From the IMG/VR virus record IMGVR_UViG_2724679352_000002, positions 44,905-64,904 of that record: a stretch of 20,000 bases of DNA; one strand, written 5' to 3'. Within the stretch, counting starts at the first letter, position 1. Each line of letters opens with the position of its first letter. Position numbers and translations under genes: made by a program. The notes beneath the pieces were generated by a model, which was not told the origin of the DNA, did no database searches, and saw only the letters and a list, made by a program, of their open reading frames with translations. The stretch is from an uncultured virus (IMG/VR IMGVR_UViG_2724679352_000002) (Duplodnaviria > Heunggongvirae > Uroviricota > Caudoviricetes). Positions 1,493 to 17,214 of the stretch are shown here, in pieces.

Positions 1493-1545
1493 GATGGCTA
1501 TCCAAAAATAAAGGGTAAAGGCGCGGAGCATTCCACACCGTGATG

Positions 1546-2061: not shown

Positions 2062-2074
2062 GGTTTAAGCTCCC

Positions 2075-3250: not shown

Positions 3251-3296
3251 GCGGTTTTCTCCGGTTAAGCGTTCATTCGCTATGATGCCGGATACA

Positions 3297-3355
3297 ATGA
3301 TGCCGGATAATTAGGCGCGGGACAGGTGATGGGGGTTGTGTGAGGGATGGCACAA
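3297..3355 (-). promoter_or_regulatory. P2-type late promoter PF with Ogr/Delta activator site
   Basis: TGT-N12-ACA at 3337-3354, inside the 20-mer TTGTGTGAGGGATGGCACAA that is identical to 13330-13349. A -10-like CATCAT lies at the same spacing as in PV. Confidence 0.85.
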
Positions 3356-3566
3356 AAAAACAGATACGCAGATTCAGCGATATTCTCCACATAAAAACCG
3401 ACTGCATCACGAATATGAGTGCTATGCAGTGTTTCGTGTTGTAGCCGGTTTTTGCGGTGTAACCTTTATATCTCATTGTATTTACGGATCAACTCCTACA
3501 GATTCAAGATTATTGTGGATAGCTCACCGTCAATAAATCTCTTTCAGTGGTGGCCTATCCATTGTG

Positions 3567-3761
3567 TTAGAGGGTGAACGCTAATTCTAGTGACTCCTCG
3601 CTGTCCCGCAGATAAGTACTGTATAACGTATCAATCTGTTGCCACAAAATAAGCAAAAGCACCTCTTTAGTATCGGCACGATCAAGGGTGACGATGGCGT
3701 AAATCAGCGCGCGGCAGTGGTCGATAAGTTCTTCTACTTCGCGGGGGGTGTCATCATACAT
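3567..3761 (-). CDS. Small hypothetical helical protein (64 aa), second gene downstream of C4 module 1
   Basis: MYDDTPREVEELIDHCRALIYAIVTLDR..., preceded by a strong RBS (GGAGGTGCGCT-ATG). It overlaps the stop of the upstream peptide. Confidence 0.7.
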   Translation of the reverse strand: MYDDTPREVEELIDHCRALIYAIVTLDRADTKEVLLLILWQQIDTLYSTYLRDSEESLELAFTL

Positions 3762-3861
3762 AGCGCACCTCCGGCAGCAGAGGGGCAGATGAAGAAACAG
3801 GTGTGGGAATAGCAACAATAGTGCAGGTCAATAATGATAGGCGTTTAGTCGTCAGATCCAT
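3754..3861 (-). CDS. 35-aa peptide directly under C4-type antisense control (icd/kil position)
   Basis: MDLTTKRLSLLTCTIVAIPTPVSSSAPLLPEVRYV*. Its RBS (GAGGT) overlaps the C4 target at 3872-3881. Confidence 0.55.
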   Translation of the reverse strand: MDLTTKRLSLLTCTIVAIPTPVSSSAPLLPEVRYV

Positions 3862-3917
3862 GATGACTACCTCTTTGGTAGGGGATTAATCACCACCAAG
3901 AGACGCTAACCTCAGAG

Positions 3918-3998
3918 GGTGGTGAACTGGGCGGGGTTAGCGTAACCGGCTACCAAAGAACCCGGCGCATCTTGCGATGCCCCCACCCAGTTCACCGT
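3918..3998 (-). ncRNA. c4: C4-type (P1/P7 c4, P4 CI-like) antisense RNA, copy 1
   Basis: Closing stem 3921-3931/3986-3996 with two internal hairpins and a 3' CACCA-like end. Loop segments UCUUUGGUAG and ACGCUAACC are complementary to 3872-3881 and 3903-3911, and partly to 4059-4066 and 4076-4082. Confidence 0.85.
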
Positions 3999-4049
3999 TT
4001 CTTGCATATTACAGGTGTCACTGTGCCCGCACATAATAGCCGTGTCTAC

Positions 4050-4143
4050 GGTTGTGCGCTTTGGTAAATTCCGGGACGCTAATCCCGACAGCGGATTTTG
4101 CCGCTGCGGCGTGACTATAGCCCAGCGAAGTTATGGCGTGCAA
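4050..4143 (-). promoter_or_regulatory. sigma70 promoter plus structured leader carrying upstream C4 targets (a1/b1-like)
   Basis: TTGCAC-18-TATAGT (4143-4138, 4119-4114), followed by hairpins CAGCGG-CAAAAT-CCGCTG and CGGGA-TTAGCG-TCCCG that present the target. Confidence 0.75.
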
Positions 4144-4154
4144 TCAGCCCGCAT

Positions 4155-4198
4155 CACTTTAGGACAAACATTTTTTCTGTAAAAATAGGCAGTTATCG
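4155..4198. repeat. Dispersed repeat copy R1
   Basis: cactttaggacaaacattttttctgtaaaaataggcagttatcg. Confidence 0.9.
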
Positions 4199-4272
4199 CG
4201 GTGATGCTTTAAAGGATGGATGAGGTAACAAGTAGTAAGGAAGAAAAAGGGAAAGGGGTAATAAACAGCGCA

Positions 4273-4304
4273 AACAGACGACGTTTAAGGCAACATCGCC
4301 TGTT
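4273..4304 (-). terminator. Hairpin after rpn
   Basis: On the minus strand AACAGGCGATGTT-GCCTTA-AACGTCGTCTGTT, closed with G-U pairs. A related hairpin at about 5378-5411 follows the RpnS remnant. Confidence 0.6.
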
Positions 4305-4328
4305 AAAAGTAGGGATTTAGCTAGCAAC

Positions 4329-4502
4329 TTAATGGCAAATTTGTGCCAGTTCTTCTTCTCTCAGACCTGTCAGCTTCATGACTTCAGTGCGGTCATAACC
4401 ATTAGCGAGCATCGAGCTGGCAATCTTCAGGGCCATTTCTTGTACCCCTTCCACTCGGCCTGCTTGATGGGCTTTATATTCCAATTTCTGTGCAATCGTC
4501 AT
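4329..4502 (-). CDS. Internal in-frame small protein RpnS (intragenic antitoxin), 57 aa
   Basis: GAGGAGGAACTT-ATG within rpn gives MTIAQKLEYK...KLTGLREEELAQICH, matching the known RpnL/RpnS architecture. Confidence 0.75.
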   Translation of the reverse strand: MTIAQKLEYKAHQAGRVEGVQEMALKIASSMLANGYDRTEVMKLTGLREEELAQICH

Positions 4503-5225
4503 AAGTTCCTCCTCGTGCTGTGGCAGGTGGTGGGCCAGATCGCGGATAAACCTTTCCGGCTCAGCCGTGTCACCATTTTGTAGTATGTAATGTATCACAG
4601 AGATTAGCTGATCTTTACTAGTGTAACCGTTCGATAACAACCTGACCAGTTCATCCGATAATTCGGACAGGTCACGTTGACGAATGTGTTTCTGCAACAG
4701 CTCCAGTAAGGCGACACGCTTATGTGTCATGATTTCGTCATCGGGGATAACGGTCACATCAATCAACGGAAAGTTGCCGCCATACAGTTCCCCCGCAAGC
4801 GTGGGTGCACTGAATGCTTGTAACCAGCTCATGGGATACGGGTACGGCGTGACCATCCCATGATAGAACAACATGGGAATGACCAGAGGCAGTTTGTCGT
4901 GTCCGGCATCAAGATGGCTCTGCATAGCGGCGATGGCATAGCGCATCAGGCGAAAAGCCATATGCTTGTCGGGAGAACTTTGATGCTCGATCAGCGCGTA
5001 AACATAGCCATCCTGTCCCTGCATTTTTAGTGAGTAGAGTACGTCCGAGTAGTAGGCTCGCAGGTCATTTTCAATAAAGCTGCCCGACTCCAGCCGCAGT
5101 GTTTTCAGGTCACAGATTTTCCGCAGGGCGGGTGGTAAGTGAATATCCAGCAGATCATAAGCCGTTTCGGGTTTGGTGACGAAATTTTTAAAAAGTGCAT
5201 CATGGGGTGTAGGGGTCGTTTTCAT
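4329..5225 (-). CDS. rpn: Rpn/YhgA-like recombination-promoting nuclease (putative transposase family), 298 aa
   Basis: TPHDALFK...LRLESGSF...YSDVLYS...YALIEHQSSPDKHMAFRLMRYAIAAM...LPLVIPMLFYHG. The likely start is ATG at 5225. Confidence 0.95.
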   Translation of the reverse strand: MKTTPTPHDALFKNFVTKPETAYDLLDIHLPPALRKICDLKTLRLESGSFIENDLRAYYSDVLYSLKMQGQDGYVYALIEHQSSPDKHMAFRLMRYAIAAMQSHLDAGHDKLPLVIPMLFYHGMVTPYPYPMSWLQAFSAPTLAGELYGGNFPLIDVTVIPDDEIMTHKRVALLELLQKHIRQRDLSELSDELVRLLSNGYTSKDQLISVIHYILQNGDTAEPERFIRDLAHHLPQHEEELMTIAQKLEYKAHQAGRVEGVQEMALKIASSMLANGYDRTEVMKLTGLREEELAQICH

Positions 5226-5271
5226 CGGGCGATAATAGTCATGGGGATCAGTGTGAGCAATCACTCCGTAC

Positions 5272-5316
5272 CACTTTAGGACAAACATTTTTTCTATTTA
5301 AAATAATGAGTTATCG
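5272..5316. repeat. Dispersed repeat copy R2
   Basis: cactttaggacaaacattttttctatttaaaataatgagttatcg. Confidence 0.9.
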
Positions 5317-5429
5317 ATATAAATAAGAGAGAAAAAACAATCACAGTGCGGAATAAATAAGGTGCAAAAAATAGTAGAAACAAGGCGACGTCTAACACAA
5401 CATCGCCCGTTAGAATGGGGGTTAACGCG

Positions 5430-5593
5430 TTATTGCGTCAGGTCTTCATCACGTAGGCCAGTGACTTTCTTTACCAGAGTGCGATCAACACCTTCTGCCA
5501 ATAGAGAGTGGGCGATTTTCAGTATCGTCTCCCGCTGACTTTCCTGATAGCTTTCAGATAGCCTTCTAGTTCAAGTGATTCTGCAATTGTCAT
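5430..5593 (-). pseudogene. Stand-alone RpnS-like ORF / rpn 3' remnant with a 1-nt frameshift
   Basis: AAGGAAGCACTG-ATG gives MTIAESLELEGYLK, then after a shift near 5551, YQESQRETILKIAHSLLAEGVDRTLVKKVTGLRDEDLTQ*. The span is 164 nt, one short of 55 codons. Confidence 0.8.
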
Positions 5594-5682
5594 CAGTGCT
5601 TCCTTGTACTACGCCGAGTTGCTATTAGTCTTTCTCAGTTGACGGTGTTGATACTCACCATCTTGAGATTTTCATCGCTATA

Positions 5683-5762
5683 GGTGCTGAACTGGGCGGG
5701 GTTGACAGACCGGTCATCGAAGAACCCGGCGCATCTTGCGATGCCCCCGCCCAGCTCACCAT
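5683..5762 (-). ncRNA. c4: C4-type antisense RNA, copy 2 (diverged loops)
   Basis: The scaffold is near-identical to copy 1 (tgaactgggcgggg...agaacccggcgcatcttgcgatgccccc.cccag.tcacc) but the loop sequences differ. Confidence 0.75.
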
Positions 5763-5794
5763 TTCTTGCTTATTACCATGTAACCGTATCTATA

Positions 5795-5887
5795 TCATGC
5801 GCTTTGGTCTATGCCGGACCGCCAAATCCGGTAAAGGACTTTACCGCAGCGGTGCTGACTATAACCCGATGAGATTCTGCTGAGCAA
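5795..5887 (-). promoter_or_regulatory. sigma70 promoter plus C4 leader, copy 2
   Basis: TTGCTC-18-TATAGT (5887-5882, 5863-5858), with hairpins paralogous to 4050-4110. Confidence 0.65.
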
Positions 5888-5898
5888 TTAGCCAGTAT

Positions 5899-5944
5899 CA
5901 TTTTAGGACAAACATTTTTATCCGTTAAAATAATGAGTTACAGG
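5899..5944. repeat. Dispersed repeat copy R3
   Basis: cattttaggacaaacatttttatccgttaaaataatgagttacagg. Confidence 0.9.
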
Positions 5945-5967
5945 TGTAGTTAAAGGAGTTTTATACC

Positions 5968-5997
5968 GCTTCCGCTAAAGATAATAGTAGCGGAAGC
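5968..5997 (-). terminator. Hairpin downstream of the Icd-like operon
   Basis: 10-bp inverted repeat gcttccgcta / tagcggaagc. Confidence 0.55.
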
Positions 5998-6006
5998 CGG
6001 TGAAAT

Positions 6007-6327
6007 TTATTGCCTGGTCAACTCGTTGTTTGTGAGCTTGGCGTTTGCTGATGCTTGCAATTGAGTGAGGGCAGGTACCAGGATACTGATTGATGCCAGA
6101 CAATGGCCTAACTGGCACAAACTTTCTACTGAGAAATCCAACACATCGTTATCGGCGAAGGTAACAAAAGTATCCCCGATAAAATTCAGCCCATGCAGCA
6201 GTCCGGCGTAACATTCCTCGCTACTGTTTGCCAGTTCCAGTGTGTCATCAGCACTCAGGTGTGACATATCCAGCTTACCGAACACCTCAGTCAATGTGGG
6301 ATAAAGTCTATTGGTATCAGGCAACAT
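6007..6327 (-). CDS. Hypothetical helical protein (106 aa) coupled to the Icd-like gene
   Basis: MLPDTNRLYPTLTEVFGKLDMSHLS..., preceded by RBS AGGAGAAGCGCC-ATG. It overlaps the upstream stop. Confidence 0.7.
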   Translation of the reverse strand: MLPDTNRLYPTLTEVFGKLDMSHLSADDTLELANSSEECYAGLLHGLNFIGDTFVTFADNDVLDFSVESLCQLGHCLASISILVPALTQLQASANAKLTNNELTRQ

Positions 6328-6523
6328 GGCGCTTCTCCTGTGGTTTGCAAGAAACAAACACCAGCGAGAAACCGGCCAGCAGATTGCGGGCCTCACGCTC
6401 AGTGGGAGCCAAAACAGAAATCAGGCGCAACGGAGAAATTTCAGCCAATAATGTGTTAGAACGGGCGTTAAGGAAGGTGTAGAGCTTTGAATATGCACGT
6501 ATGTTACTATTAGCGTCAGCCAT
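6317..6523 (-). CDS. Host cell division inhibitor Icd-like protein (68 aa)
   Basis: MADANSNIR...YTFL...ISVLAPTEREARNLLAGFSLVFVS carries the A-x-TEREAR...LVF pattern. RBS GAGGTAATGCT-ATG. Confidence 0.65.
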   Translation of the reverse strand: MADANSNIRAYSKLYTFLNARSNTLLAEISPLRLISVLAPTEREARNLLAGFSLVFVSCKPQEKRHVA

Positions 6524-6595
6524 AGCATTACCTCGTATAATGGTGTGGTTAGATGTCCTGTGAGTGTTCACGCACCCACGGGGCATTGTCTTTAC
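6517..6595 (+). ncRNA. Putative SymR-like cis-antisense RNA over the Icd-like RBS and start
   Basis: Extended -10 TGTTACTAT at 6502-6510. A plus-strand hairpin at 6554-6586 is supported by G-U pairs. The leader layout resembles symE/symR loci. Confidence 0.5.
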
Positions 6596-6657
6596 TGAGT
6601 GCTGTACATTGGTGTACATTTAAAACCAGTTAAAGAAATATACCCGAGTGATAACCA

Positions 6658-6837
6658 ATGTCAACCAAAGACAACCAAAAAGAAAGGAATGTTGTTCAAC
6701 TTCGGTTGGATGCTGATTTGTCCGAAAGACTGACTATCGCTATGAAAGAAGATGGCGATGATAACAAAGCAGGATGGATTAAACGGTTACTACGCCGAGA
6801 GTTAGATCGTCGCGGCATTGAGCTTAAAGGTGAGTAG
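6658..6837 (+). CDS. Small ribbon-helix-helix-like DNA-binding protein (59 aa; below the ORF-track cutoff)
   Basis: MSTKDNQKERNVVQLRLDADLSERLTIAMKEDGDDNKAGWIKRLLRRELDRRGIELKGE*, with strand VQLRL followed by two helices. Confidence 0.75.
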   Translation: MSTKDNQKERNVVQLRLDADLSERLTIAMKEDGDDNKAGWIKRLLRRELDRRGIELKGE

Positions 6838-6893
6838 CATCATAAAAACAGACGGGTTTACTGATTAGAGTTGGCCTTGTGCACTTTTTAAGT

Positions 6894-6929
6894 AAGTCGA
6901 ACAGTCCGAAAACGTGGACTGTTCGACTT
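6894..6929. terminator. Probable bidirectional terminator
   Basis: Perfect 14-bp inverted repeat aagtcgaacagtcc / ggactgttcgactt between convergent genes. Confidence 0.75.
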
Positions 6930-6931
6930 TG

Positions 6932-7228
6932 TTAAGTAGTCGTGCTCACCTGACGCTGAACCGAGCGAACGATAGAGAAAAAATTACGCACCGTTGGGTT
7001 ACTGCCAGGAGCCAGCATTTGCATGACTGATTTGCTGTTTTTCCCAATATCTTCACCTACGGTAACAAACCCGCCAGTAGCGAGTATCAGCCAGCGTAAA
7101 ATCACTGCTGCGGAATCAAATTCACCCTCAGCAATAAGTTCTTTTGCCTCATCAAACATCGCCTGACGATAATCAGGATCTTCGCGCATCTCTTGCACGA
7201 TCCGTTGGTTAACAGAAACTGCCGGCAT
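6932..7228 (-). CDS. HTH antitoxin (addiction module antidote, HigA-like)
   Basis: 98 aa with GGF...IGK...MLAPGSNPT motif, directly downstream of the toxin. Confidence 0.8.
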   Translation of the reverse strand: MPAVSVNQRIVQEMREDPDYRQAMFDEAKELIAEGEFDSAAVILRWLILATGGFVTVGEDIGKNSKSVMQMLAPGSNPTVRNFFSIVRSVQRQVSTTT

Positions 7229-7230
7229 AA

Positions 7231-7569
7231 TTATTTACCTCTCTTTTCTTTCAGATAACACTTACGATATTTTTCAGCATTATCAAGATCTTTGTCCTGA
7301 GCCGATTTATCTCCAGCACATAACAAGATGATTAGCTCATCACCATCCTGCATCAAATACAGTCTAATACCCGGCCCCCAATTAATGCGGTATTCACCGA
7401 TACCGGGACGACCACTGAGCCATTTTACAGATGACGTATTCCCTACCATTAAACGAGCAATTGCTGAGTCGATTTTCACTCTCGCTTGAGGGTTTTTTTT
7501 ACGCCATTTATCCAGAGGGCTGATACCTTCAGGCGTCTGGTATTCTTTGATGGTGATTTCAAGTCTCAT
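7231..7569 (-). CDS. RelE/ParE-superfamily toxin (addiction module killer, HigB-like)
   Basis: GIGEYRINWGPGIRLY...IILLCAGDKSAQDKD motif, in toxin-first order. Confidence 0.88.
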   Translation of the reverse strand: MRLEITIKEYQTPEGISPLDKWRKKNPQARVKIDSAIARLMVGNTSSVKWLSGRPGIGEYRINWGPGIRLYLMQDGDELIILLCAGDKSAQDKDLDNAEKYRKCYLKEKRGK

Positions 7570-7574
7570 GGATG

Positions 7575-7604
7575 AATGGTAATTTATATATTACCATTTA
7601 ACAA
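7575..7604 (-). promoter_or_regulatory. Promoter/operator of the HigBA-like module
   Basis: Inverted repeat aatggtaat-N6-attaccatt (7575-7598) overlapping TTGTTA-17-TACCAT. Confidence 0.7.
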
Positions 7605-7651
7605 GGTGCAGGGTAGGAAAAATAAGACTAAAAAGCAATTTTAAGTGTTAC

Positions 7652-7732
7652 GGTGATGCTTCCCTTGCGACGTGGATAAAAAGGATATTGCGTAAAGAGT
7701 TACGCGAAAGAGGCATTGAACCTAAAGGTTAG
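7652..7732 (+). pseudogene. 3' remnant of a paralogue of the RHH gene at 6658-6837
   Basis: GDASLATWIKRILRKELRERGIEPKG* aligns with GDDNKAGWIKRLLRRELDRRGIELKGE*. No N-terminus is present. Confidence 0.75.
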
Positions 7733-7739
7733 GTGAGTA

Positions 7740-7798
7740 TATACAATGTATAACTTTTGATTGTTCTCTTTGGTACTTGAGGTTATACTTTGTATAAT
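7740..7798 (+). promoter_or_regulatory. Operator palindromes and -10 of the MazEF/ChpSB-like module
   Basis: tatac-aat-gtata (7740-7752) and ttatac-ttt-gtataa (7783-7797), the latter overlapping TATAAT. Confidence 0.65.
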
Positions 7799-7818
7799 TT
7801 CTTGCGGGGGATAATACT

Positions 7819-8070
7819 ATGACTATAGCAATCAAAAAGTGGGGCAACAGTAGTGGCGTTGTCTTGCCCTCATTATTGTTGAAAAAACTAGGTGTGACCA
7901 ACGGGCAACATCTTGATGCAGAAATAAAGAATGGCTCATTGATTCTGACCCCAACACAACGCCGTTACACGCTTGAAGAGTTAGTCGCGCAATGTGATAA
8001 AAATGCGCCAATGACGGCAGAAGAGGATGTTTGGGGTAACGACGCACCGACAGGGAATGAAATATGGTGA
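7819..8070 (+). CDS. AbrB/MazE-family antitoxin (ChpS/PemI-like)
   Basis: IKKWGNSSGVVLP...YTLEELVAQCD...GNEIW. Confidence 0.93.
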   Translation: MTIAIKKWGNSSGVVLPSLLLKKLGVTNGQHLDAEIKNGSLILTPTQRRYTLEELVAQCDKNAPMTAEEDVWGNDAPTGNEIW

Positions 8071-8420
8071 AGCGTAAGCAGGGATGGAATCGCGGCGATA
8101 TCGTTTTAGTAGACTTTAACCCGGCAATGGGGAGTGAGCAGCGAGATGCTCGTCCAGCGCTGGTATTGACAAAAAAACTGTTTAACAATCTCGGCATGGC
8201 CCTTGTTGCCCCAATAACTCAGGGCGGTAACTATGTGCGCCATGCTGGTTTTACCGTGTCGCTGTCGGGTACAGGATGTACAACACAAGGCGTCGTTTTA
8301 CTCAATCAAGTCCGAATGCTCGATCTTATGGCACGAAATGCCCGCTTTGTGGAGCAACTTGATGAAGTCGCCGTAAATGACGCTCTGCTGAAATTTGCGA
8401 CTCTCGTCGAAATTGACTAG
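8064..8420 (+). CDS. PemK/MazF-family endoribonuclease toxin (ChpB-like)
   Basis: RGDIVLVDFNPAMGSEQRDARPALVL...VAPITQGG...GVVLLNQVRMLD. Confidence 0.93.
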   Translation: MVKRKQGWNRGDIVLVDFNPAMGSEQRDARPALVLTKKLFNNLGMALVAPITQGGNYVRHAGFTVSLSGTGCTTQGVVLLNQVRMLDLMARNARFVEQLDEVAVNDALLKFATLVEID

Positions 8421-8995
8421 CCAAGAAATATTGGTAGGGGTTTTATACCAATCAATTACGCTCGTATTGAGGTTGCTCTGCACGTTCTCTTAAAAAATCA
8501 TCTGAAACGTGCGGGCTACTGAGGAAAAAACTATCCCATGCATTTTTAACAGGTAACAAAATACGCTCATTTTTTACAACTTTTGGTTTAATGTTTTCTT
8601 TAAAATACATATCTACCTTATATGACATATTTTATAAGCTAATAAATAGAATCTAAGAGAAATATTTGATAGAAATTGTGAAATTTTTATTGATTCATTT
8701 TAGCTATTTAAGTCTCTCTAAAAAAGACATCTGCAATCCATTAAGTCATGCTAGTTTGGTTTTTCGACCCATTGTCTAACAGGATTAGACAACGGGCGAT
8801 ATTTTCAAACGATAGAGAGTCATCTTTTGTAGCCCCGTAGACACAATAATTCAGTTTATGGCGATAACTGTAGCCCTTGGGATACAAGAAATTAAAAAAT
8901 CATCGTCAATAAAGCGACTGATTCAGTAGACAATACACTGACAAATATCCCGCCAACTGTAACCACGGGCATCATCCCGAACAATGCCTCAACCT

Positions 8996-9040
8996 CACTT
9001 TAAGACAAATATTTTCCAAGTTAAAATAACGAGTTACAGG
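8996..9040. repeat. Dispersed repeat copy R4
   Basis: cactttaagacaaatattttccaagttaaaataacgagttacagg. Confidence 0.85.
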
Positions 9041-9137
9041 ATAGGTTACTGCAATCTCCCAAGGTTTTTGATGAGAATTCGAGTATTTTGTTGATTGAAT
9101 TTACCCTCCAACTCTCTATTCAGTTATTAAGCTTTAT

Positions 9138-9166
9138 TTGATTTTGTAGCTCAGTTGAGCCACAAT
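9138..9166 (+). promoter_or_regulatory. dinJ-yafQ promoter/operator
   Basis: TTGATT-17-CACAAT overlapped by the palindrome ttgtagctca-gt-tgagccacaa (one mismatch). Confidence 0.7.
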
Positions 9167-9195
9167 GTGGTCTCCAACTAAAAGGAGGCTTTACT

Positions 9196-9456
9196 ATGGC
9201 CGCAAATGCTTTTGTTCGTGCTCGTATAGACGAAACCCTAAAAAATGAAGCCGCTGCTGTGCTTGCTGGCATGGGTTTAACCGTATCCGATCTGGTGCGG
9301 ATAACCTTAACCAAGGTCGCCCGAGAAAAAGCGCTTCCGTTCGATTTGAGTATTCCTAACGAACTTACCGCTAAAACTATTGCCAACAGCGAGAAAGGTG
9401 TCGATGTCCATAAAGCAAAGGATGCCGATGATCTGTTTGATAAATTAGGTATCTGA
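9196..9456 (+). CDS. dinJ: RelB/DinJ-family antitoxin
   Basis: MAANAFVRARIDETLKNEAAAVLAGMGLTVSDLVRITLTKVAREKALPFDL...DADDLFDKLGI. Confidence 0.95.
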   Translation: MAANAFVRARIDETLKNEAAAVLAGMGLTVSDLVRITLTKVAREKALPFDLSIPNELTAKTIANSEKGVDVHKAKDADDLFDKLGI

Positions 9457-9462
9457 TAGACC

Positions 9463-9741
9463 ATGATTAAACAAAGGGAAATTGAATATTCAGGTCAGTT
9501 CCAGAAAGATGTGAAAAAAGCTCAGAAGCGCCATAAAGATATAAATAAACTTAAAGTCATTATGACGCTTCTGATTAACGATAAATTGCCCTTGCCTGTT
9601 GTATATAAGGATCATCAATTACAAGGTAATTACAAAGGTTACAGGGATGCACATATAGAGCCAGACTGGCTTATCATCTACAAGATTACTGATGATTTGC
9701 TTCGCTTCGAAAGGACAGGAAGCCATTCTGATCTATTTTAG
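9463..9741 (+). CDS. yafQ: YafQ-family mRNA interferase toxin
   Basis: REIEYSGQFQKDVK...KDHQLQG...YRDAHIEPDWLIIYK...FERTGSHSDLF. Confidence 0.95.
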   Translation: MIKQREIEYSGQFQKDVKKAQKRHKDINKLKVIMTLLINDKLPLPVVYKDHQLQGNYKGYRDAHIEPDWLIIYKITDDLLRFERTGSHSDLF

Positions 9742-9753
9742 GTATCACTCAGC

Positions 9754-9780
9754 CTCATTTTAAGACAAACATAAAATAAG
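9754..9780. repeat. Dispersed repeat copy R5 (shortened), abutting the end of the tail fibre assembly gene
   Basis: ctcattttaagacaaacataaaataag. Confidence 0.75.
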
Positions 9781-9783
9781 CTG

Positions 9784-10200
9784 TCATTGCGGCAACTCCG
9801 GCCAGTCAATCTCTGGCGCAGCGCTGGTGTTGATGCGCATTAACGCGACGCGGTACTGTTTGAATGCCGCCAATTGCTGAATATCAGTCTGTTGATTATC
9901 CATTGCGATAGCGTCGAGTAGGATGTTGATGTGATCTGATACCTGATTTATCAGCGCGGTTTTCTGTTGGCTTGCGGCGGCAATATGGCGGGCTTTTAAT
10001 GCCTGTTGATCGACTTCCCAGGCGGTTCCTGTCCATATATCAAACTCATGCATTGGCTGAATCAGTGTTTTATTGTGTGGAATGGGGCGAGCACAAAAAT
10101 GATGGATTCATGTTTTGTTTCAATGTCATACACCGTTTGATGGCGATAGTCTGCCACTGTTACCCACTGGTTAGCAGTTAAATCCCTGACCAATGCCATG
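9784..10200 (-). pseudogene. Tail fibre assembly chaperone (Tfa/gpG-like) remnant: 5' deleted, frameshift near 10088
   Basis: ALVRDLTANQWVTVADYRHQTVYDI... continues in another frame as PIPHNKTLIQPMHEFDIWTGTAW...YRVALMRINTSAAPEIDWPELPQ*. Confidence 0.85.
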
Positions 10201-10916
10201 CCGGTTTTTGTCAGCGCATTGATCCCCGCCGAGGCAATAATGCAGGGGCCACCCCAGCCAAATGCCCCGACCTGCATGAGTTCATCTTGAGCATTACCCA
10301 CATTTCTGGTGGCCGCAGAGCCTAATTGCAAGTTAGTCCGCGCCGCTTTGGTATCGCTAAGATCAAATAAATTGTGGCTGGCGAGGAGATATTGCGGGTG
10401 TGGATTAAGGGTGCGGATATGGTTGCTGATTGAGGTTACAGTGGTGCTGATGAGTTGGTCGGCATATTGGCGTGTTGCCAGCACCACTGCTGGGTCGGTT
10501 TTCAGGATAACGGCTGCTGTGCTGCTGACGGCCAAAATGACTCGAATAGTCTGGATGCGGCCACTGCCTTCCTGCATTTGTGGCTTATAACTTTCCGGGC
10601 AATTGGCGATGGCAATTAACTCTCCGGCTTTATTCAGCAAACCAATCTCCCGGATCCACCACCCGCCCTCGGTCTCAGGGATAATTTGCTCCACAATAAT
10701 CTGATGGGGATTGCTCGGGTCAATGGTCAGGGCATTAAGGGCGGCGCGGCGTTGTTCATTCACCAGTTGGGTTTGTGCCGGGCTAGGGGTTGGCAGGGTT
10801 CCACCGCCATCCCCGACCGCCATGTGGGTAATCTCTAAGCGGGTGCCGAGCGCAGTGGCGTTCGCCAGTTTGGCCGCGCCGATATGGGTCAGTAAGGCGA
10901 AGTATTTAGCGGTCAT
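10062..10916 (-). pseudogene. gpH: Tail fibre gpH N-terminus, truncated and fused in frame to a Tfa fragment
   Basis: The P2 H-type N-terminus (KYFALLTHIGAAKLANA...MAVGDGGG...GGWWIREIGL...NCPESYKP) switches to Tfa sequence after TKTGM. Confidence 0.88.
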
Positions 10917-11395
10917 ATTGAGTCCATTCGATAGGGGTACACGGTCAACTCATCACCGCTGTAACTGGTGGCAGCCACAGTCAGCGGGCCGCTACTTTCC
11001 AGATTAATCGATAGGCCGATCAAATGGCGACTACAGGGTTTGGCATCAAAAATCAGCCGCTCCAGCTCGGGGTACATTTCCTCGGTAATGCCTGTTTCCA
11101 ACACCCACATCAAGGCGAAAGGTGCCGGGGGTTTCGTTGGTCTTCCACCACTCAATCACCTTAATGAGATAGCCGAGCGGCTCAACCACGCGACGAATTG
11201 CGCCGATGGTGCCTTTGTGTTTGTGCACGTACTGCGAGGACTTCACCACCGCGCGCTTGGCGGCTTCCGGCCATTTCTCATCCCAGCGGTCCACAGCTGG
11301 CGTAATGGCACGTCAATGTCAGCCATGCGGGCGCAGGCTTGTGCGGCGGCAATTTCCAACGGGGTAGAGCCAACCGGCAATAGTCGTTTATTCAT
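10913..11395 (-). pseudogene. gpI: Baseplate/tail protein gpI with an internal deletion and frameshifts
   Basis: Three pieces in different frames: MNKRLLPVGSTPLE...PLRQLW, then DRWDEKWPE...GTFRLDVGV, then LETGITEEMY...AKPCSRHL. The conserved CP..LP.LAW segment is missing. Confidence 0.9.
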
Positions 11396-12296
11396 CTGAG
11401 CCACCCGCCGTTAATGTATAGCCAGCGCACCAGGCGGCTTGTGTTTTATTGAGTACCACATCAGCAACCGGCGCAGTCAGCTCTACCCGCTGCACACCCT
11501 CGACATGCAGTGCGGCATAAATAGCAGATTTGCGAATATCCCGCCCTAAGCGGCGCTGAGTGCTGATATAGCTTTTTAGCCTGGCTTCGGCTGCGGCTCG
11601 AATCGGCTCGGCTTCCGGCCCCGGATAAAAATAGAGCGTGGCGTCAATCTGATACTCAACGATGGTGGCAGAATTGACGGTTAAGCGGTCAGCTACCGGG
11701 CGCACGTTCTCATCGTTTAGCGCTATAAATACCTTATCTAATAAATACTGTGCCGCTGTACCATTTCCCTCGCGAGATAGCACGGTGACGGTAACGCACG
11801 CGGGGGAGGGGCTGATTGCGGAAGCATCGGCCACCCGACCATCCGCACTGCGGGCGTGATACTCGTAAGCACCCGTTGGCCCGGCCACGCTCAAACCCTC
11901 AAAGGCTTGCGGAATACGCATACGGAAATCGTCGTCAGATTCCATCACTGCGGTAATAGGTGGGATTGTGTCTGGATTGGCTGGCGTGATGGTTAACCGC
12001 TCAATACCATTATTTGCGCCGAGGTGATCTAAGTCGCTGCCAATAGCATGGGCTACCATCACCGCTTGCGCTCCCTCATTGACACGCTGACGCAACAGCA
12101 ATTCACGGTAGGTACTTTCCTGCAACAGCTTCACGATGGGTTCCGACTCAAATGACAACGTTAGGCGCACCGCGTCTTGTTGATCAGCCGGATATAAGGC
12201 GATAAATTCCTCTTTGCGCACGGCAAACAGGCTTTCAAAATCCAGTGATTCAATCACCAGCGGGGCCGGTAACTGGCTTAAATCAATGATTGCCAT
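11388..12296 (-). CDS. gpJ: Baseplate assembly protein gpJ
   Basis: IDLSQLPAP...ESEPIVKLLQE...LSVAGPTGAYEYHA...VRPVADRLTV. Confidence 0.96.
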   Translation of the reverse strand: MAIIDLSQLPAPLVIESLDFESLFAVRKEEFIALYPADQQDAVRLTLSFESEPIVKLLQESTYRELLLRQRVNEGAQAVMVAHAIGSDLDHLGANNGIERLTITPANPDTIPPITAVMESDDDFRMRIPQAFEGLSVAGPTGAYEYHARSADGRVADASAISPSPACVTVTVLSREGNGTAAQYLLDKVFIALNDENVRPVADRLTVNSATIVEYQIDATLYFYPGPEAEPIRAAAEARLKSYISTQRRLGRDIRKSAIYAALHVEGVQRVELTAPVADVVLNKTQAAWCAGYTLTAGGSDE

Positions 12297-12652
12297 TATT
12301 GACTTCCTATTGGCACGGCCAAACTCAACCGACTGTCACTATCGGTGCGACTTCCGGTTAAATCCACCATCATCTTGCCGTCTTTTTGAGTGGTGATACT
12401 GATGGCATTCAGCGTCACGCGCGGCTCCCAGCGCATCACTGCGCCATACACCGCCACCATCATTTTGAGACGTAAGGCGGGATTTTGTGGCTGGTCAATC
12501 AGGGTTGATAGCAAGGAGCCATAATCACGGCGCATCACTCGCGAGCCTTGCGGCGTGGTCAGAATGTCGCTGATTGACTGGCGAATGTGGTCAATATCTC
12601 CGATGTTTAAACCGCTGTTGCGGTTCATACCGATATATTTATAGCTGGTCAT
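12296..12652 (-). CDS. gpW: Baseplate wedge protein gpW
   Basis: DHIRQSISDILTTPQGSRVMRRDYGS...RWEPRV. Confidence 0.96.
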   Translation of the reverse strand: MTSYKYIGMNRNSGLNIGDIDHIRQSISDILTTPQGSRVMRRDYGSLLSTLIDQPQNPALRLKMMVAVYGAVMRWEPRVTLNAISITTQKDGKMMVDLTGSRTDSDSRLSLAVPIGSQ

Positions 12653-13284
12653 TTAACCCCCTCAGTCCAGCTTCCGCCGCGCTGCACGCCGCCGTGGTCA
12701 TGCTTATCAACCACCACGCCATTAGATGAAAGTTTCCCGCCGGAATGCGTGACATTACCGCTCATAGTGCCACCTTGCTTCACGTTCAGCGTGGCGGTGG
12801 TCAGGTTGTGGGTGCATTCCACTTCTGGCGTATCCAGTGTGATTTTGACTGATGCGGTACAGGTGATATTGGGGGCGGTGACAGTGACTGACTTGCTGGC
12901 ATCAATCACTGCGGTGGCTATTCCGGTGACAGCCAGGTGACTGGTTTCCGGCTCATACTCAAAACGCGCACCATCGGGAAAAGTGATCACCATGGCATCC
13001 GCCGATTGTGACGGCGCGGAATTGGCATCTGAAAAAATGGCGGGCAGCACAAAACCGGTAGTGAGTTCACCGCCGATACTCAACACCATAACTTGTTCAC
13101 CCACTGATGGCGCAGACCAAAAGCGCACTCGACCGGCGCGTAGGGTTAACCAATTTAGCCAATCGGTTTCAAGGTTGCCTATCTTGACCCGGCATAATCC
13201 GTTAGCAAGATCGACGTCTGAGACGATGCCAATACGGATAATGTTAGCCAACAGGCGTTTAAGGCCAGCAATAAGGATATTCAT
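12649..13284 (-). CDS. gpV: Baseplate spike protein gpV
   Basis: MNILIAGLKRLLANIIRIG...WSAPSVGEQV..., with a C-terminal metal-binding HDH motif. The start was reassigned to ATG at 13284. Confidence 0.95.
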   Translation of the reverse strand: MNILIAGLKRLLANIIRIGIVSDVDLANGLCRVKIGNLETDWLNWLTLRAGRVRFWSAPSVGEQVMVLSIGGELTTGFVLPAIFSDANSAPSQSADAMVITFPDGARFEYEPETSHLAVTGIATAVIDASKSVTVTAPNITCTASVKITLDTPEVECTHNLTTATLNVKQGGTMSGNVTHSGGKLSSNGVVVDKHDHGGVQRGGSWTEGVK

Positions 13285-13290
13285 GCGGCC

Positions 13291-13349
13291 AGTGTGCCGC
13301 CTACGGGCGCGCGCGGCATGTGATGGGTTTTGTGTGAGGGATGGCACAA
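13291..13349 (-). promoter_or_regulatory. P2-type late promoter PV with Ogr/Delta activator site
   Basis: TGT-N12-ACA at 13331-13348. A -10-like CACACT at 13296-13291 lies 6 nt before the gpV ATG. Confidence 0.85.
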
Positions 13350-13672
13350 GAGGTTCCCCAGAGATTCAAATTAGATTTTCACATATAGCATTTAATTAAA
13401 TGAAAGCAATAAATTAAATAAAGCAAACAAGAGAAGTCAGGTTATTAAATAATACACTATTAATTAATATTGTATTATTTAAATATTGAATAGATTATTA
13501 AATAAATTATCATTACAGTAATTATATTTTTTAGTTAATGATTAACAATCAATCTGAAATATATGTGATGTATATTTTAATAACTATTATACTAATCTAG
13601 CTGGTTATTTTTAATGCCTGATATTTTCCGTTTCTCACGTAGAGTTACCACAATAATTTATTTGGAGTTCGT

Positions 13673-15280
13673 ATGAATTTTAATAATAAACTTATGGGGA
13701 TTTTCAAGTCACCATTATTCAATCCTGAACTAAAATTTCACATATCCAAGCGTGACTATATAGATTTAACTATAAAAAGGATGAAATTTATTTTCAAAGA
13801 AAAAATAATTAACAATGACATGTGGCTTGGTCAGGGCAAAGAAATTAAATTCAATGAGTTGTGTGAAAATATAGGCTTAATTGGTGCATTCGATCACTCA
13901 TTAGCAATATCGATATCTATCCATATGATTTCTGGGAATGTTATGTTCACGCAATCTGACCTTATTCAGATGGGTAAATATCATGATGAAGTCAATAATA
14001 TGCACTGCATATACTCTATGTGTTGTTCAGAAATTGCCAACGGCACTAACTTAAAGAATCTGGAAACTACGGTAACCTATGATCATAAACATAAAAAATT
14101 GCTTCTCCATTCCCCAAGCTTTGGTTCATGTAAGTTTTGGATAGGGAATGCTCTCTACAGCGCATCTGTGGGTGTGGTATTAGCAAGACTTGTAGTTAAT
14201 AATATTGATCATGGCCCTCATTGGTTCCGAGTTCCATTAAGGGATAAGGATGATGGGATATTATTCTCGGGTATAAATATCATCCCTGTAGGCCCTGAGG
14301 GAGGGATGCACGGAATACAGATGGCTGCAATTCGATTTAATCAGGTTGGTTTGCCTCTCGATGCTATGTTGCAACGCTATTCCAGCATATCTTCTGACGG
14401 TGTATATCATAGCGAAATGGATCAACCACAGCGTTATATAAATTTATTTGAAACTTTTTTACAAGAAAGACTGATTCCATTATATATGCTAATCAAATCC
14501 TCAGCTACTGCGCTTGATATCACATTTAAATACTCTCAAAATAGAATTATATCACATGAACCGACGTGTAAAACATTAATTATGGAGCCGCTTTTTTGCC
14601 AACGATTATATCCAGAGCTATTAAAGTCGGCTGCGATTATGATTATCGGAAAAATAATCGTCAGGAAATTTATAGACTCTTGGGAAAATAAAAATTCCTA
14701 TAAAGAGTTGCAGATTATAGCTTCGACAGGAAAGTATATTGGAACAGCGTTGGGTTTGGATATTCTGCGTCAGTGTCGTTTGATGTGTGGGGCCTTAGGA
14801 TTTCATCATTATAATAAAATCATCACATTGCAGAATGATGCAGAGGCAGCATTAACTTATGCTGGTGACAATTCTGTAATGTCATACCAAATTGCAAAGC
14901 ATATGGTTAGAACACAGCGATTTAATAATCCGATGACTGTTCCCGCTAATCTTGCTCAAGAGGTTGAGAAGAAAGTCGTCGCTGATTGTCAACATAACCC
15001 ATTATCACATGCTGCCGCACAAATATTATCTTACTCTTATGGGTTAGATTTGGTTATTCAAGAGATACAAAATTCAGATATTTTAGATGATGAGCTGTTA
15101 TTAGATTTAATTAATGTCTTTTCACCTTATTTGTCTGAAATTCCAAGCCCTATAGTTCCTACAATAGAGAGAATAACCTATCTGATTAACCTTATCTCAC
15201 CGCCACCTGAACTAATAACAGCACCAATAGCTAATGCTGACTATACAAAGGAGTTCACTTCTAAGTTATATACTGAATGA
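13673..15280 (+). CDS. Acyl-CoA oxidase/dehydrogenase-fold flavoprotein
   Basis: SEIANGTNLKNLETTVTYD, KFWIGN, VVLARLV...DHGPHWFRVPLRD, CRLMCGALGF and TYAGDNSV correspond to acyl-CoA oxidase motifs. RBS GGAG. Confidence 0.85.
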   Translation: MNFNNKLMGIFKSPLFNPELKFHISKRDYIDLTIKRMKFIFKEKIINNDMWLGQGKEIKFNELCENIGLIGAFDHSLAISISIHMISGNVMFTQSDLIQMGKYHDEVNNMHCIYSMCCSEIANGTNLKNLETTVTYDHKHKKLLLHSPSFGSCKFWIGNALYSASVGVVLARLVVNNIDHGPHWFRVPLRDKDDGILFSGINIIPVGPEGGMHGIQMAAIRFNQVGLPLDAMLQRYSSISSDGVYHSEMDQPQRYINLFETFLQERLIPLYMLIKSSATALDITFKYSQNRIISHEPTCKTLIMEPLFCQRLYPELLKSAAIMIIGKIIVRKFIDSWENKNSYKELQIIASTGKYIGTALGLDILRQCRLMCGALGFHHYNKIITLQNDAEAALTYAGDNSVMSYQIAKHMVRTQRFNNPMTVPANLAQEVEKKVVADCQHNPLSHAAAQILSYSYGLDLVIQEIQNSDILDDELLLDLINVFSPYLSEIPSPIVPTIERITYLINLISPPPELITAPIANADYTKEFTSKLYTE

Positions 15281-15333
15281 TGTGATATTTACTCACCTGC
15301 ATCACACTAATTAATCACTATAGGAATCACACT

Positions 15334-16377
15334 ATGAATACAACCAATTTCAATATAGACAAACAGGATGACAAAATTAAATCCCAGAAAATAAGGAAGG
15401 CCATAAGTAATCACTGTAAAGAAATGGAGAGAAAATATGGTATATTAAAACGCCAGGATGCATTGGGTCTTGGTATATTATCTTTCGCCATTGGGGTTTT
15501 TATCGTTAGTTCATTATGTTATCTCAATGGATATATCGCATGGTGGGGATGCATCATAATTAATGCCCTTTGCCTTTCTATTGCACATGAAATTGAACAT
15601 GATTTAATTCATAATTTATATTTCAAAAAAAATCGTTTCATGCATAACATAATGATGGCCATTGTATGGGGTGTTCGCCCTAGTACGGCTAACCCTTGGG
15701 TTAGGCGAAAAATTCACCTTAAACATCACCAAATGCCAGGGACATATGAGGACTTAGAGGAAAGGCTACTTTCTAATGGTCAGCACTGGGGGCTGTTGAG
15801 ACTATGGATGACTAGTGATTTTATAGTTGCTACAGCGGTAGTGATATTACAATCTAAATCGATGGAAGAAAAAAGAGAGTTATTTAAGAAGGCAATTAAG
15901 GCGTTTTTCCCACTCTCACTTCTACACTCAATAATTGCATATTCATTTATTATATTTCACTTGATAAATATTGTCTCACCACTATTTGGAGTGACAATTA
16001 CCTGGTCTGAAATGACTCTAAAAGTATTCAATGTTATTGATGTCGTAATGGTAATAATCACAGCGCCCAATATCCTGTGGTCGTTCTGCTTACATTTCGT
16101 CAGCTCAAACATGCATTATTACGGCGATAATGAAACTGGTAATACTATTCAGGAAACGCAGGTGCTTAATCCTTGGTGGCTTTTACCGTTCAACCTATTT
16201 TGTTTTAACTTTGGTAGCACCCACGCAATACATCATTTTGTCGTCAATGAGCCTTTTTATATCAGACAATTATCAGCACCATTTGCACATAAAGTAATGA
16301 GGGATATGGGGGTCAGGTTTAATGATTTTAAAACATTTAACCGAGCAAATAGATGGGGAGAAAATATAATTAAATAA
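15334..16377 (+). CDS. Membrane di-iron fatty acid desaturase-fold enzyme, UndB-like
   Basis: His boxes HEIEH, HLKHH, NMH and HAIHH, plus several hydrophobic segments. RBS AGGA. Confidence 0.88.
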   Translation: MNTTNFNIDKQDDKIKSQKIRKAISNHCKEMERKYGILKRQDALGLGILSFAIGVFIVSSLCYLNGYIAWWGCIIINALCLSIAHEIEHDLIHNLYFKKNRFMHNIMMAIVWGVRPSTANPWVRRKIHLKHHQMPGTYEDLEERLLSNGQHWGLLRLWMTSDFIVATAVVILQSKSMEEKRELFKKAIKAFFPLSLLHSIIAYSFIIFHLINIVSPLFGVTITWSEMTLKVFNVIDVVMVIITAPNILWSFCLHFVSSNMHYYGDNETGNTIQETQVLNPWWLLPFNLFCFNFGSTHAIHHFVVNEPFYIRQLSAPFAHKVMRDMGVRFNDFKTFNRANRWGENIIK

Positions 16378-16391
16378 TGGACGAGAAAAAA

Positions 16392-16838
16392 TCACAGACT
16401 AATAAAATCCAACGCCAGATCCCCAATCCATTCACTATCGCCGTCAGTAAAGCCCAATAACTGGCGGCGCTCGTATTTCACTGTTGGCCCGTTGCGGCTA
16501 ACCTTATCGCGTAAGCCGTAGTGATGCACTCGCACCAGATTATTGACCTTACCGCTAAAGGTAACGGCGGCCTCGTCGGCGTTGGATTCGTTTTTGATAT
16601 AACGGGCGGTACGCAGTTGGGTAAACATATTGCGCTTGATACGGCCTTGTTTATCACGGCGTTTTTTCTTGCGCGGCACAAAGGGTGAGCCGTCCGGGTT
16701 CTGCTGTGCCTGAATATGCTTTTGCTGGCGCTGGCGTAACTCTTTAGCCACTTGACGCATAAACGCACCGCGTGCCTGTGGTGCCAATTGCGCCAGCAAA
16801 ATGGATAAAGTTTGGTCTAATTCCTGTAAATCATTCAT
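16392..16838 (-). CDS. gpS: Tail completion protein gpS
   Basis: QQNPDGSPFVPRK...RVHHYGL...RRQLLGF. ATG at 16838 overlaps the gpR stop (ATGA). Confidence 0.93.
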   Translation of the reverse strand: MNDLQELDQTLSILLAQLAPQARGAFMRQVAKELRQRQQKHIQAQQNPDGSPFVPRKKKRRDKQGRIKRNMFTQLRTARYIKNESNADEAAVTFSGKVNNLVRVHHYGLRDKVSRNGPTVKYERRQLLGFTDGDSEWIGDLALDFISL

Positions 16839-17214
16839 AGCGACCACTCGGCCACTTTCTCACCCTTAATGTAAACCTCGTAGCTGCTCAGAGAGGCGTA
16901 AGGTTCTGGCGGCTCGTCCAGAGTAGTGACCGTTAATTTCCCGTCTTGCTCTTTAACGATGGTTCGCTCGGTGAGTTTGAGGTCAATACTGATATCGCGC
17001 AGTTTGTTATCCAGATAATTCGCTTCAAAGGTGAAACCATCCTGACGCTTATCATGATTTGCCATGATATCTGGCTGATTGGTGCGCAACCAGTGCAAAA
17101 TCGGGACAATGACCAGATCCATATCACTGGCGTAATCGGTCACCACCAGATTTAAGGTGTACTGATATTCGAATGATAATGACGGGGCCAGCGTGGCAAT
17201 AATCGCCCCTTTTA
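16835..17214 (-). pseudogene. gpR: Tail completion protein gpR, 5' truncated
   Basis: The frame extends upstream of the listed ORF as KGAIIATLAPSLSFEYQYTLNLVVTDY... and includes DISIDLKLTER. Homology stops at about 17214. Confidence 0.88.

Follow-up and report, generated by a model that had tools for sequence, protein, structure and literature searches.

The 20,000-nt stretch analysed here (the window) makes up the final 20 kb of IMGVR_UViG_2724679352_000002, an IMG/VR provirus record of 64.9 kb, and it carries a cassette of two genes between the tail genes V and S of a P2-like prophage remnant. The first gene encodes a flavoenzyme with a predicted acyl-CoA oxidase (ACOX) fold (P0001) and the second a putative membrane diiron enzyme of the UndB family (P0002). 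We propose that the pair is a horizontally mobile oxidative lipid module, carried as the orf30 moron of a P2-like Yersinia phage and kept by selection after the prophage decayed, and that it makes a 1-alkene or a related oxidised lipid. We give this proposal an even chance of being correct. It builds on what can be read at the level of sequence, namely the identity of the two genes, the families to which they belong, their conserved pairing and the purifying selection acting on them.

The cassette lies at the moron site that orf30 occupies in P2. Its two genes run antisense to gpV and gpS (Table 1), and each ATG is preceded at ∼8 nt by a Shine–Dalgarno-like motif (GGAG for P0001 and AGGA for P0002). 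Both are also full length, with 535/535 and 347/347 residues aligning to the copy in Yersinia phage vB_YenM_42.18. From 0.50–0.56 in the flanks, the GC content drops to 0.27–0.40 within the cassette and reaches 0.16 in part of the leader (13400–13599). In the P2 record, the nonessential Orf30 is found at the S/V junction in the orientation opposite to both genes, matching the cassette in junction and relative strand, and the paper on phage R18C describes the ORF30 junction as one of three moron regions in P2-like phages (PMC6823313). The two genes have the features of a P2-type moron: they are cargo with no structural role, they lie between gpS and gpV in opposite orientation to both, they deviate in GC content and they are missing from related phages, the group 2 Yersinia phages being reported to lack them (PMC9224151). 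A first-pass annotation of the window had described an intact, AT-rich two-gene operon behind an AT-rich leader, antisense between V and S at the P2 orf30 variable site and surrounded by decaying structural genes; all of these points were borne out.

Within the leader, a block of 60 nt is common to the phage and chromosomal copies of the cassette. The rest of the leader is less alike, with 94 and 102 of 185 positions and 23 and 36 of 70 positions identical to the Providencia and Yersinia massiliensis copies, respectively. From its conservation, the 60-nt block is likely to be a regulatory site. A promoter-like site at 13486–13513 is a consensus match only. The possibility that the leader is a structured RNA was also considered and rejected: its folding energy was not better than that of shuffled sequences (z +1.5), and a search of the leader against Rfam returned no family.

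We found 2222 relatives of P0002. The nearest were from Yersinia (69–93% identity), Pectobacterium (58–60%) and Serratia (57–58%), followed by Pseudomonas proteins of 352–357 aa that were 50–55% identical over 94–100% of the query. UndB of P. fluorescens Pf-5 is encoded by a 1074-bp gene, and its family is characterized by three His boxes, H89DLIH93, H128(L/F)(N/H)H131H132 and H297(G/S/A)IH300H301 (PMC11776017, quoting Rui et al. 2015). In P0002 the boxes read H89DLIH93, H128-L-K-H131-H132 and H297-A-I-H300-H301, with every His at its published position; the single departure is Lys130, the third residue of box 2, which is N or H in the published motif. Eleven His residues were conserved in 133 of the 134 UndB-like sequences aligned. 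P0002 thus resembles UndB (Pmen_4370 of P. mendocina ymp; PFL_0203 of Pf-5) in length, in His-box numbering, in its four hydrophobic spans and in its 51–54% identity to the orthologues. UndB has four transmembrane helices and a His-rich domain on the cytosolic side; four such helices were predicted for P0002 both from hydropathy (∼41–84 and ∼190–256) and from the model of P0002 (helices at 41–64, 70–92, 194–217 and 226–261).

A substrate-binding network of seven residues (E85, R112, R121, D137, E139, Y188 and R246) has been described for Pme-UndB (PMC12746148). All seven are present at exactly the published numbers in P0100, a protein of the P. mendocina group, which was therefore taken as a close orthologue of the characterized UndB; the equation is made through length and exact residue numbering, so the comparison of P0002 with the characterized enzymes is indirect. 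Five of the seven residues are retained in P0002 (E88, R115, R124, D140 and E142, equivalent to Pme E85, R112, R121, D137 and E139), and two are replaced (Y188 by F191 and R246 by W249, Pme numbering first). The UndB-like character that the first-pass annotation had assigned to the second protein was upheld at the level of the family, with the correction that two published substrate contacts have been replaced. The substrate preference of P0002 may be shifted, given Trp in place of Arg246 and Phe in place of Tyr188. Both replacements are clade-specific, occurring in all 26 enterobacterial sequences (14 from Yersinia, Providencia and Pectobacterium, and 12 from Serratia), including those of Serratia, which have no flavoenzyme partner.

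The P0002 gene also differs from that of UndB in its context, since it follows a flavoenzyme gene in a phage-borne two-gene cassette whereas UndB is found beside a divergent AraC-type regulator. At the UndB-like locus of Pseudomonas akapageensis, an Mpo1-like gene (L005:4332–4841; PF06127, 2-hydroxy-palmitic acid dioxygenase family), encoding another iron enzyme that oxidises fatty acids, lies past the AraC regulator. Searching PDB with the P0002 sequence gave a best E-value of 0.7. The best fold matches of the P0002 model were two chains of chloroplast Ycf2/Orf2971–FtsHi complexes (E 0.04–0.05; template modelling (TM) score 0.40–0.43), which were set aside because the model is of moderate quality.

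We considered whether the two genes might simply serve ordinary fatty-acid metabolism, with P0002 a desaturase or hydroxylase that alters the unsaturation of membrane lipids or acyl-CoA (e.g. for growth in the cold) and P0001 an extra dehydrogenase of beta-oxidation. The generic family annotations of both proteins would fit this explanation, and the R246W and Y188F replacements, which fall in the carboxylate-binding network, would suit an enzyme whose substrate is not a free acid. It is also consistent with the report that vB_YenM_42.18 forms plaques at ∼22°C only (PMC9224151). However, just one of three and one of five PF00487 genes in two Pseudomonas genomes resembled P0002 (54% identity, 1e-124 to 1e-126), while the remaining PF00487 desaturases of those genomes and of Y. 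massiliensis had no detectable similarity to it (E ≥ 0.17). In a tree of 34 UndB-like proteins, the Pectobacterium, Yersinia and Providencia sequences formed one clade (99/95) with Serratia as its sister, and the Enterobacterales together were sister to the Pseudomonas UndB orthologues (100/99). The first-pass annotation had named clustering with ordinary desaturases as grounds for abandoning the UndB assignment; P0002 instead grouped with the UndB orthologues. Furthermore, six UndB homologues are reported to have made 1-alkenes in Escherichia coli; the five besides Pme-UndB are 36–75% identical to it, and 14 homologues were modelled by the same authors (PMC12746148). The identity of P0002 to the Pseudomonas orthologues lies inside this envelope. 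Ordinary fatty-acid metabolism is therefore an unlikely explanation, and from these comparisons the placement of P0002 in the UndB family, rather than among ordinary desaturases, is well supported.

The first protein, P0001, matched PF22924 and, weakly, PF02770 and PF00441 in Pfam, with no match to PF01756. NCBIfam gave nothing informative for either protein, and PHROGs gave just a weak 23-bit match for P0001. Solved acyl-CoA oxidases in PDB matched P0001 at 2.5e-32, the regions of the flavin adenine dinucleotide (FAD) motifs being conserved in the HMMER alignments. An AlphaFold2 model built from 39 sequences had a mean predicted local distance difference test score (pLDDT) of 89.7 and a predicted TM score of 0.91, and the top ∼30 Foldseek matches to this model were all acyl-CoA oxidases (TM score 0.67–0.82; best match 5y9d, 0.82). 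Judged by this model, P0001 has an acyl-CoA oxidase fold. It shares the whole of that fold (N-terminal helical, beta, C-alpha1 and C-alpha2 domains), including the second C-terminal helical domain, with enzymes such as ACOX1 (PDB 5y9d, 1w07, 5k3g and 1is2; TM score 0.71–0.82), but is shorter (535 aa compared to 620–710 aa), lacks PF01756 and has Ala at the position of the catalytic Glu.

That position, E421 in the rat enzyme and part of an F/Y-E-G-E/D-N motif, holds the catalytic base of ACOX. It corresponds to Ala397 in P0001 (T-Y-A397-G-D-N), and the Ala is invariant in 39/39 family sequences. P0001 also has an invariant Glu265-Arg266 pair, within the sequence FLQERL on helix G. As comparators we used the acyl-CoA dehydrogenases of one Pseudomonas genome, which were named by their PDB matches because no NCBIfam model specific to isovaleryl-CoA dehydrogenase (IVD) identified them. 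The IVD orthologue (4o5m, 1e-195; 1ivh, 1.6e-162) has LDYERV and GAGT at the two sites, and the orthologue of long-chain acyl-CoA dehydrogenase (LCAD; 8w0t, 3.3e-133) has LPQERL and YAGT. When P0001 was aligned to LCAD with hhalign (probability 98.3%, ∼21% identity), E265 was paired with the LPQERL Glu and A397 with the YAGT Ala. The Glu of helix G serves as the catalytic base in IVD (Glu254) and LCAD (Glu261). These two enzymes resemble P0001 in that an xER motif supplies the helix-G Glu while the canonical base site is Ala or Gly, but differ in being tetramers of ∼385 aa without the extra C-terminal domain.

An exhaustive profile search with the P0001 family gave 782 relatives at E ≤ 1e-30, of which 18 were aligned for a comparison of the motifs. 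The helix-G Glu was present in all 13 of the nearest relatives, proteins of Streptomyces and Saccharopolyspora among them, and the 12 of these that cover the canonical region all read F/Y-[A/G/T]-G-D-N, having lost the canonical Glu. In the five more distant ACOX-type proteins the pattern was reversed, with [T/G]-R on helix G and [F/Y]-E-G-D-N at the canonical site (5/5). The two Glu residues were thus mutually exclusive in the 17 relatives covering both regions (12 versus 5), the pattern to be expected if the base has been relocated. P0001 is therefore probably an active acyl-thioester dehydrogenase or oxidase, although not a canonical ACOX. The earlier description of the first protein as acyl-CoA oxidase-like accordingly holds for its fold but not for its catalytic Glu, the helix-G residue being of the LCAD/IVD type.

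The cassette was 96.8% identical at the nucleotide level, over all 3001 bases queried, to ORF36/ORF37 of vB_YenM_42.18 (two records of one phage), where it is found at the same V/S junction; that phage is inducible and complete, whereas a tail-module remnant is present in the window. An ACOX-like gene followed at a comparable distance by an UndB-like gene was seen in the phage, in two IMG/VR contigs, in Y. massiliensis and in a Providencia genome. Adjacency was further indicated by consecutive protein accessions in Pectobacterium carotovorum, P. versatile, P. actinidiae, Y. wautersii, Y. pseudotuberculosis and Y. canariae; one P. carotovorum pair had non-consecutive accessions. In Y. enterocolitica, copies of the two proteins were found on 200 and 223 contigs. 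The pair therefore recurs in Yersinia, Providencia and Pectobacterium, and its absence elsewhere, which the first-pass annotation would have counted against a functional link, was not observed. Relatives of P0001 are nonetheless rare. A word-index search gave 38 clusters, to which a profile search through the same index added no further family members, and relatives were present in 2/401 Enterobacterales genomes, 10/401 Pseudomonas genomes and 2/400 scored Gammaproteobacteria (one of them distant). The cassette had no megablast match in E. coli genomes. Among 31 genome loci matched by P0002, two have the ACOX-like gene and one begins within the UndB-like gene; there was no ACOX-like gene in the sequence covered at the other 28, some of which are short.

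The ratio of non-synonymous to synonymous substitution (dN/dS) relative to the phage copy was 0.32 and 0.12 for the two genes, and relative to more distant copies (dS 0.8–1.1) it was 0.10–0.14. These low values show that P0001 and P0002 are real genes under selection, and the view of the cassette as a functional unit under selection is well supported. The dS to vB_YenM_42.18 was 0.05–0.18 for the cassette compared to 0.35–0.85 for five flanking tail genes (V, J, FI, FII and S), which indicates an exchange between diverged P2-like phages that is more recent than the divergence of the flanks.

A decaying copy of the cassette was found in Y. alsatica (genome G004; L036/L037 and L003), between fragments of V and S. 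There, the ACOX-like gene is split over two frames, while the UndB-like gene is at the end of a contig, with an inverted fragment of 25 aa on another contig; the adjoining gpV is down to 37 aa and gpS to 96 aa. The Providencia copy has a gene for a small-molecule O-methyltransferase (G002, L057:512–1540; PF00891 and PF08100) ∼1.1 kb downstream of the cassette. We considered this as a third cassette gene but rejected it, as it was seen in Providencia only and was missing from the other copies.

Survival of the cassette within a dead prophage could also be explained by a role in defence or superinfection exclusion, in which the pair would alter envelope lipids or make a toxic product acting against competing phages. 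Anti-phage cargo is indeed described in variable loci of P2-like phages, but the P2 hotspot concerned adjoins cos and not orf30 (PMC9122126). Neither protein (0/2) matched PADLOC-DB 2.0 at E ≤ 0.01, both are metabolic enzymes, and the pair is not confined to phages: in Y. massiliensis and Providencia it is found in plain chromosomal islands, with no phage gene in the 35 kb examined. We consider a defensive role very improbable.

The contexts of P0001 relatives in Pseudomonas provide a second view of the flavoenzyme family. In 10/10 Pseudomonas loci (10/401 genomes; L038–L053) the gene order was HPP-family membrane protein, ACOX-like protein, cytochrome P450 and RidA, the P450 being CYP107-like with PksS and BioI as its best PDB matches. 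An Abhydrolase_3 esterase sometimes follows RidA, and one genome has the P450 joined to RidA in the same open reading frame (ORF). The exhaustive profile search also gave a natural fusion of 938 aa (P0215), with the ACOX-like part at residues 2–535 and the P450 at the C-terminus; over 526 aa, the former shares 38% identity with P0001. The fusion belongs to a 90% cluster of 21 members. Of the 15 members listed, 13 are 938 aa long, and one member, annotated as ‘Putative acyl CoA oxidase/Cytochrome P450 fusion protein’ of P. fluorescens, is found on 60 contigs. The fusion is probably the protein catalogued as CYP221A1 in a 2007 review of P450 fusions; we found no paper on the function of either the fusion or the ACOX-like/P450/RidA cluster. 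Both the fusion (e.g. ABA74602.1) and the unfused cluster resemble P0001 in having E-R and F-A-G-D-N motifs and in lying directly upstream of an O2-activating enzyme. They differ from the cassette in that the partner is a soluble CYP107-like P450 rather than a membrane diiron enzyme, in that RidA follows and in being chromosomal. In every context examined, the flavoenzyme family was thus directly before, or fused to, an enzyme that activates O2 and requires two electrons, and it appears to be a dedicated partner of O2-activating metalloenzymes.

Such a partnership raises the possibility of a redox couple, in which the flavoenzyme would oxidise an acyl thioester and, from its reduced FAD, hand the two electrons to the diiron centre of its UndB-like neighbour (or, in Pseudomonas, to the P450). 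Such an arrangement would make the cassette independent of a host ferredoxin system, and no H2O2 would be given off. Both types of partner require two external electrons per turnover, and no reductase was present among the ORFs scanned in either cassette, a scan that was limited, for ferredoxins, to genes of at least 90 codons. The natural fusion to a P450 in some Pseudomonas points in the same direction, enzymes fused to P450s being classically their redox partners. However, no ACOX-fold flavoenzyme is known to supply electrons to a P450 or to a membrane diiron enzyme, and the acyl-CoA/enoyl-CoA couple is, from its potential, a poor reductant for P450 haem. A redox couple would fit the reported lack of known native redox partners for UndB (PMC11204201), but UndB functions in E. 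coli with partners supplied by the host (PMC12746148, PMC11204201). On balance, we think it improbable that the two proteins form a redox couple.

In the reading that we prefer, the two enzymes work one after the other on a shared acyl pool, and FadD and thioesterases of the host operate between them. P0001 would be an FAD enzyme that takes the alpha-proton from an acyl thioester through its helix-G Glu, in the manner of LCAD and IVD. P0002 would use O2 and two electrons for the oxidative decarboxylation of medium-chain fatty acids to terminal 1-alkenes. Lysogens would then produce volatile olefins or a related oxidised lipid, the product being probably a medium-chain terminal alkene. Both chemistries, the sequence in which the steps occur, expression during lysogeny and the nature of the product are inferred.

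Several observations weigh against this reading. Free C10–C16 fatty acids are the substrate of UndB, which turns them into 1-alkenes using O2 and a reductant, whereas ACOX-type enzymes act on thioesters, and the cassette encodes neither a thioesterase nor a ligase. The 2-enoyl products expected of P0001 would have no sp3 beta-hydrogen for UndB chemistry, making a simple two-step route not obvious. H2O2 is reported to inhibit UndB reversibly (PMC11204201), which argues against a peroxide-releasing oxidase beside it. The position of R246, described in the UndB papers as critical for substrate binding, is Trp in 26/26 enterobacterial sequences, whereas it is Arg in 107 of the 108 others (95/96 Pseudomonas-type and 12/12 Alcanivorax-type; 134 sequences overall). 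The model of P0002 is only moderate (pLDDT 72.8), and a fold search with it gave no solved fold at E ≤ 0.001. The pairing is also not universal for UndB-like genes. All four Pseudomonas, Alcanivorax and Thalassolituus UndB-like loci compared adjoin a divergent AraC-type regulator instead of a flavoenzyme. UndB-like genes were present in 5/401 Yersiniaceae genomes, and three of these five (with UndB-like proteins 50–58% identical) had no member of the flavoenzyme family, other than one weak match (5e-23) elsewhere in one genome.

The element around the cassette is the remnant of a P2-like prophage. The minus strand of the window carries the P2-type tail genes T (N-terminal part), E, FII, FI, J, W, V and S, whose products are 86–97% identical to those of vB_YenM_42.18 at the amino acid level. 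Homology to this phage by blastn covers positions 41070–48259 and 55367–62116 of the record, equivalent to 1–3355 and 10463–17212 of the window. It stops at 17212, which was taken as the approximate end of the prophage; no head, lysis or replication genes are present in the window beyond this point. The long ORF that begins further downstream is probably a host gene adjoining the prophage end. Damage is evident in several tail genes in addition to gpR (Table 1): gpI is reduced to fragments, gpH consists of the N-terminal domain only (284 aa, of which 170 aa align to the 452-aa phage H) and the gene for tail-fibre assembly is cut short.

Most of the tail-fibre module has been replaced by ∼6.8 kb of foreign, lower-GC DNA at 3273–10053. 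In addition to the transposase and toxin genes listed in Table 1, this insert contains several ORFs matching PHROGs of unknown function. The two C4 RNAs, isrK and the c4-a1b1 target flank the transposase gene. They look like the remains of a P1/P7-type immunity region within the P2-like remnant.

Table 1. Features of the cassette, its flanks and the remainder of the window (window coordinates)
Feature	Position	Strand	Comment
gpV baseplate spike gene, left anchor	12649–13347	−	PF04717, PF18715, PF18946; 93% amino acid identity to vB_YenM_42.18 gpV
AT-rich leader, 325 nt	13348–13672	+	GC 0.16 at 13400–13599
Conserved leader block, 60 nt	13540–13599	+	44/60 identical to the Providencia copy, 49/60 to Y. 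massiliensis
P0001, ACOX-fold (predicted) flavoenzyme gene, 535 aa	13673–15280	+	PF22924, 1.5e-14
Spacer, 53 nt	15281–15333	+	AGGA ∼8 nt ahead of second ATG
P0002, putative UndB-family membrane diiron enzyme gene, 347 aa	15334–16377	+	PF00487, 7.3e-15
gpS tail completion gene, right anchor	16392–16847	−	PF05069, 5e-32; convergent with the cassette, 14-nt gap
gpR fragment	16835–17146	−	PF06891 positions 54–133 of 133; N-terminal third gone
C4 antisense RNA (two), isrK and c4-a1b1 target	3915–4002, 4033–4120, 5680–5766	− (all)	Rfam; both C4 full length, 75.9 and 74.7 bits
YhgA-like transposase (Transposase_31)	4329–5288	−	
PHROG ‘toxin’ ORF	7231–7569	−	
MazF/PemK-like toxin	8064–8420	+	
YafQ/RelE-like toxin	9463–9741	+	
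Open-ended ORF, at least 763 aa	17709–20000	+	Four PATR autotransporter passenger repeats; ∼500 nt past phage homology

The first-pass annotation had not recognized the pair as described P2 cargo, but in this it was mistaken. The two genes are already in print for the P2-like phage vB_YenM_42.18 as a ‘fatty acid desaturase’ and an ‘Acyl CoA oxidase’, and were pointed out as a striking difference from the group 2 phages; that paper uses these generic names only and makes no tie to UndB (PMC9224151). Our literature searches returned no relevant paper joining UndB and prophages. Those on Yersinia and 1-undecene gave nothing about this locus, judged on titles and abstracts, and among the matches listed for desaturase or acyl-CoA genes in P2-like Yersinia phages none was relevant. 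What is new relative to the published account is the UndB-family identity of P0002, within a phage pair previously known by generic names.

The turnover of UndB is reported to be limited by an uncoupled supply of electrons, and its native redox partners are described as unknown (PMC11204201). A compact mobile cassette in which the UndB-family gene is always beside one flavoenzyme offers a concrete candidate partner for UndB, and the P450 fusion in Pseudomonas suggests a wider rule, with one flavoenzyme family serving different oxygenases. In its boldest form, which we hold to be doubtful at present, this would make the ACOX-fold flavoenzymes with a helix-G Glu a new class of swappable, dedicated partners for O2-activating metalloenzymes; in the cassette, the native partner that UndB lacks would be the flavoenzyme, which would supply it with electrons or acyl substrate, and lysogens of Yersinia, Providencia and Pectobacterium would emit terminal olefins. 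In Pseudomonas, 1-undecene is reported to be both an aerial signal and an antifungal volatile (PMC10614000, PMC11776017). If the proposed function is correct, the cassette would be a metabolic moron making a volatile hydrocarbon, kept under selection after the death of the prophage that carries it.

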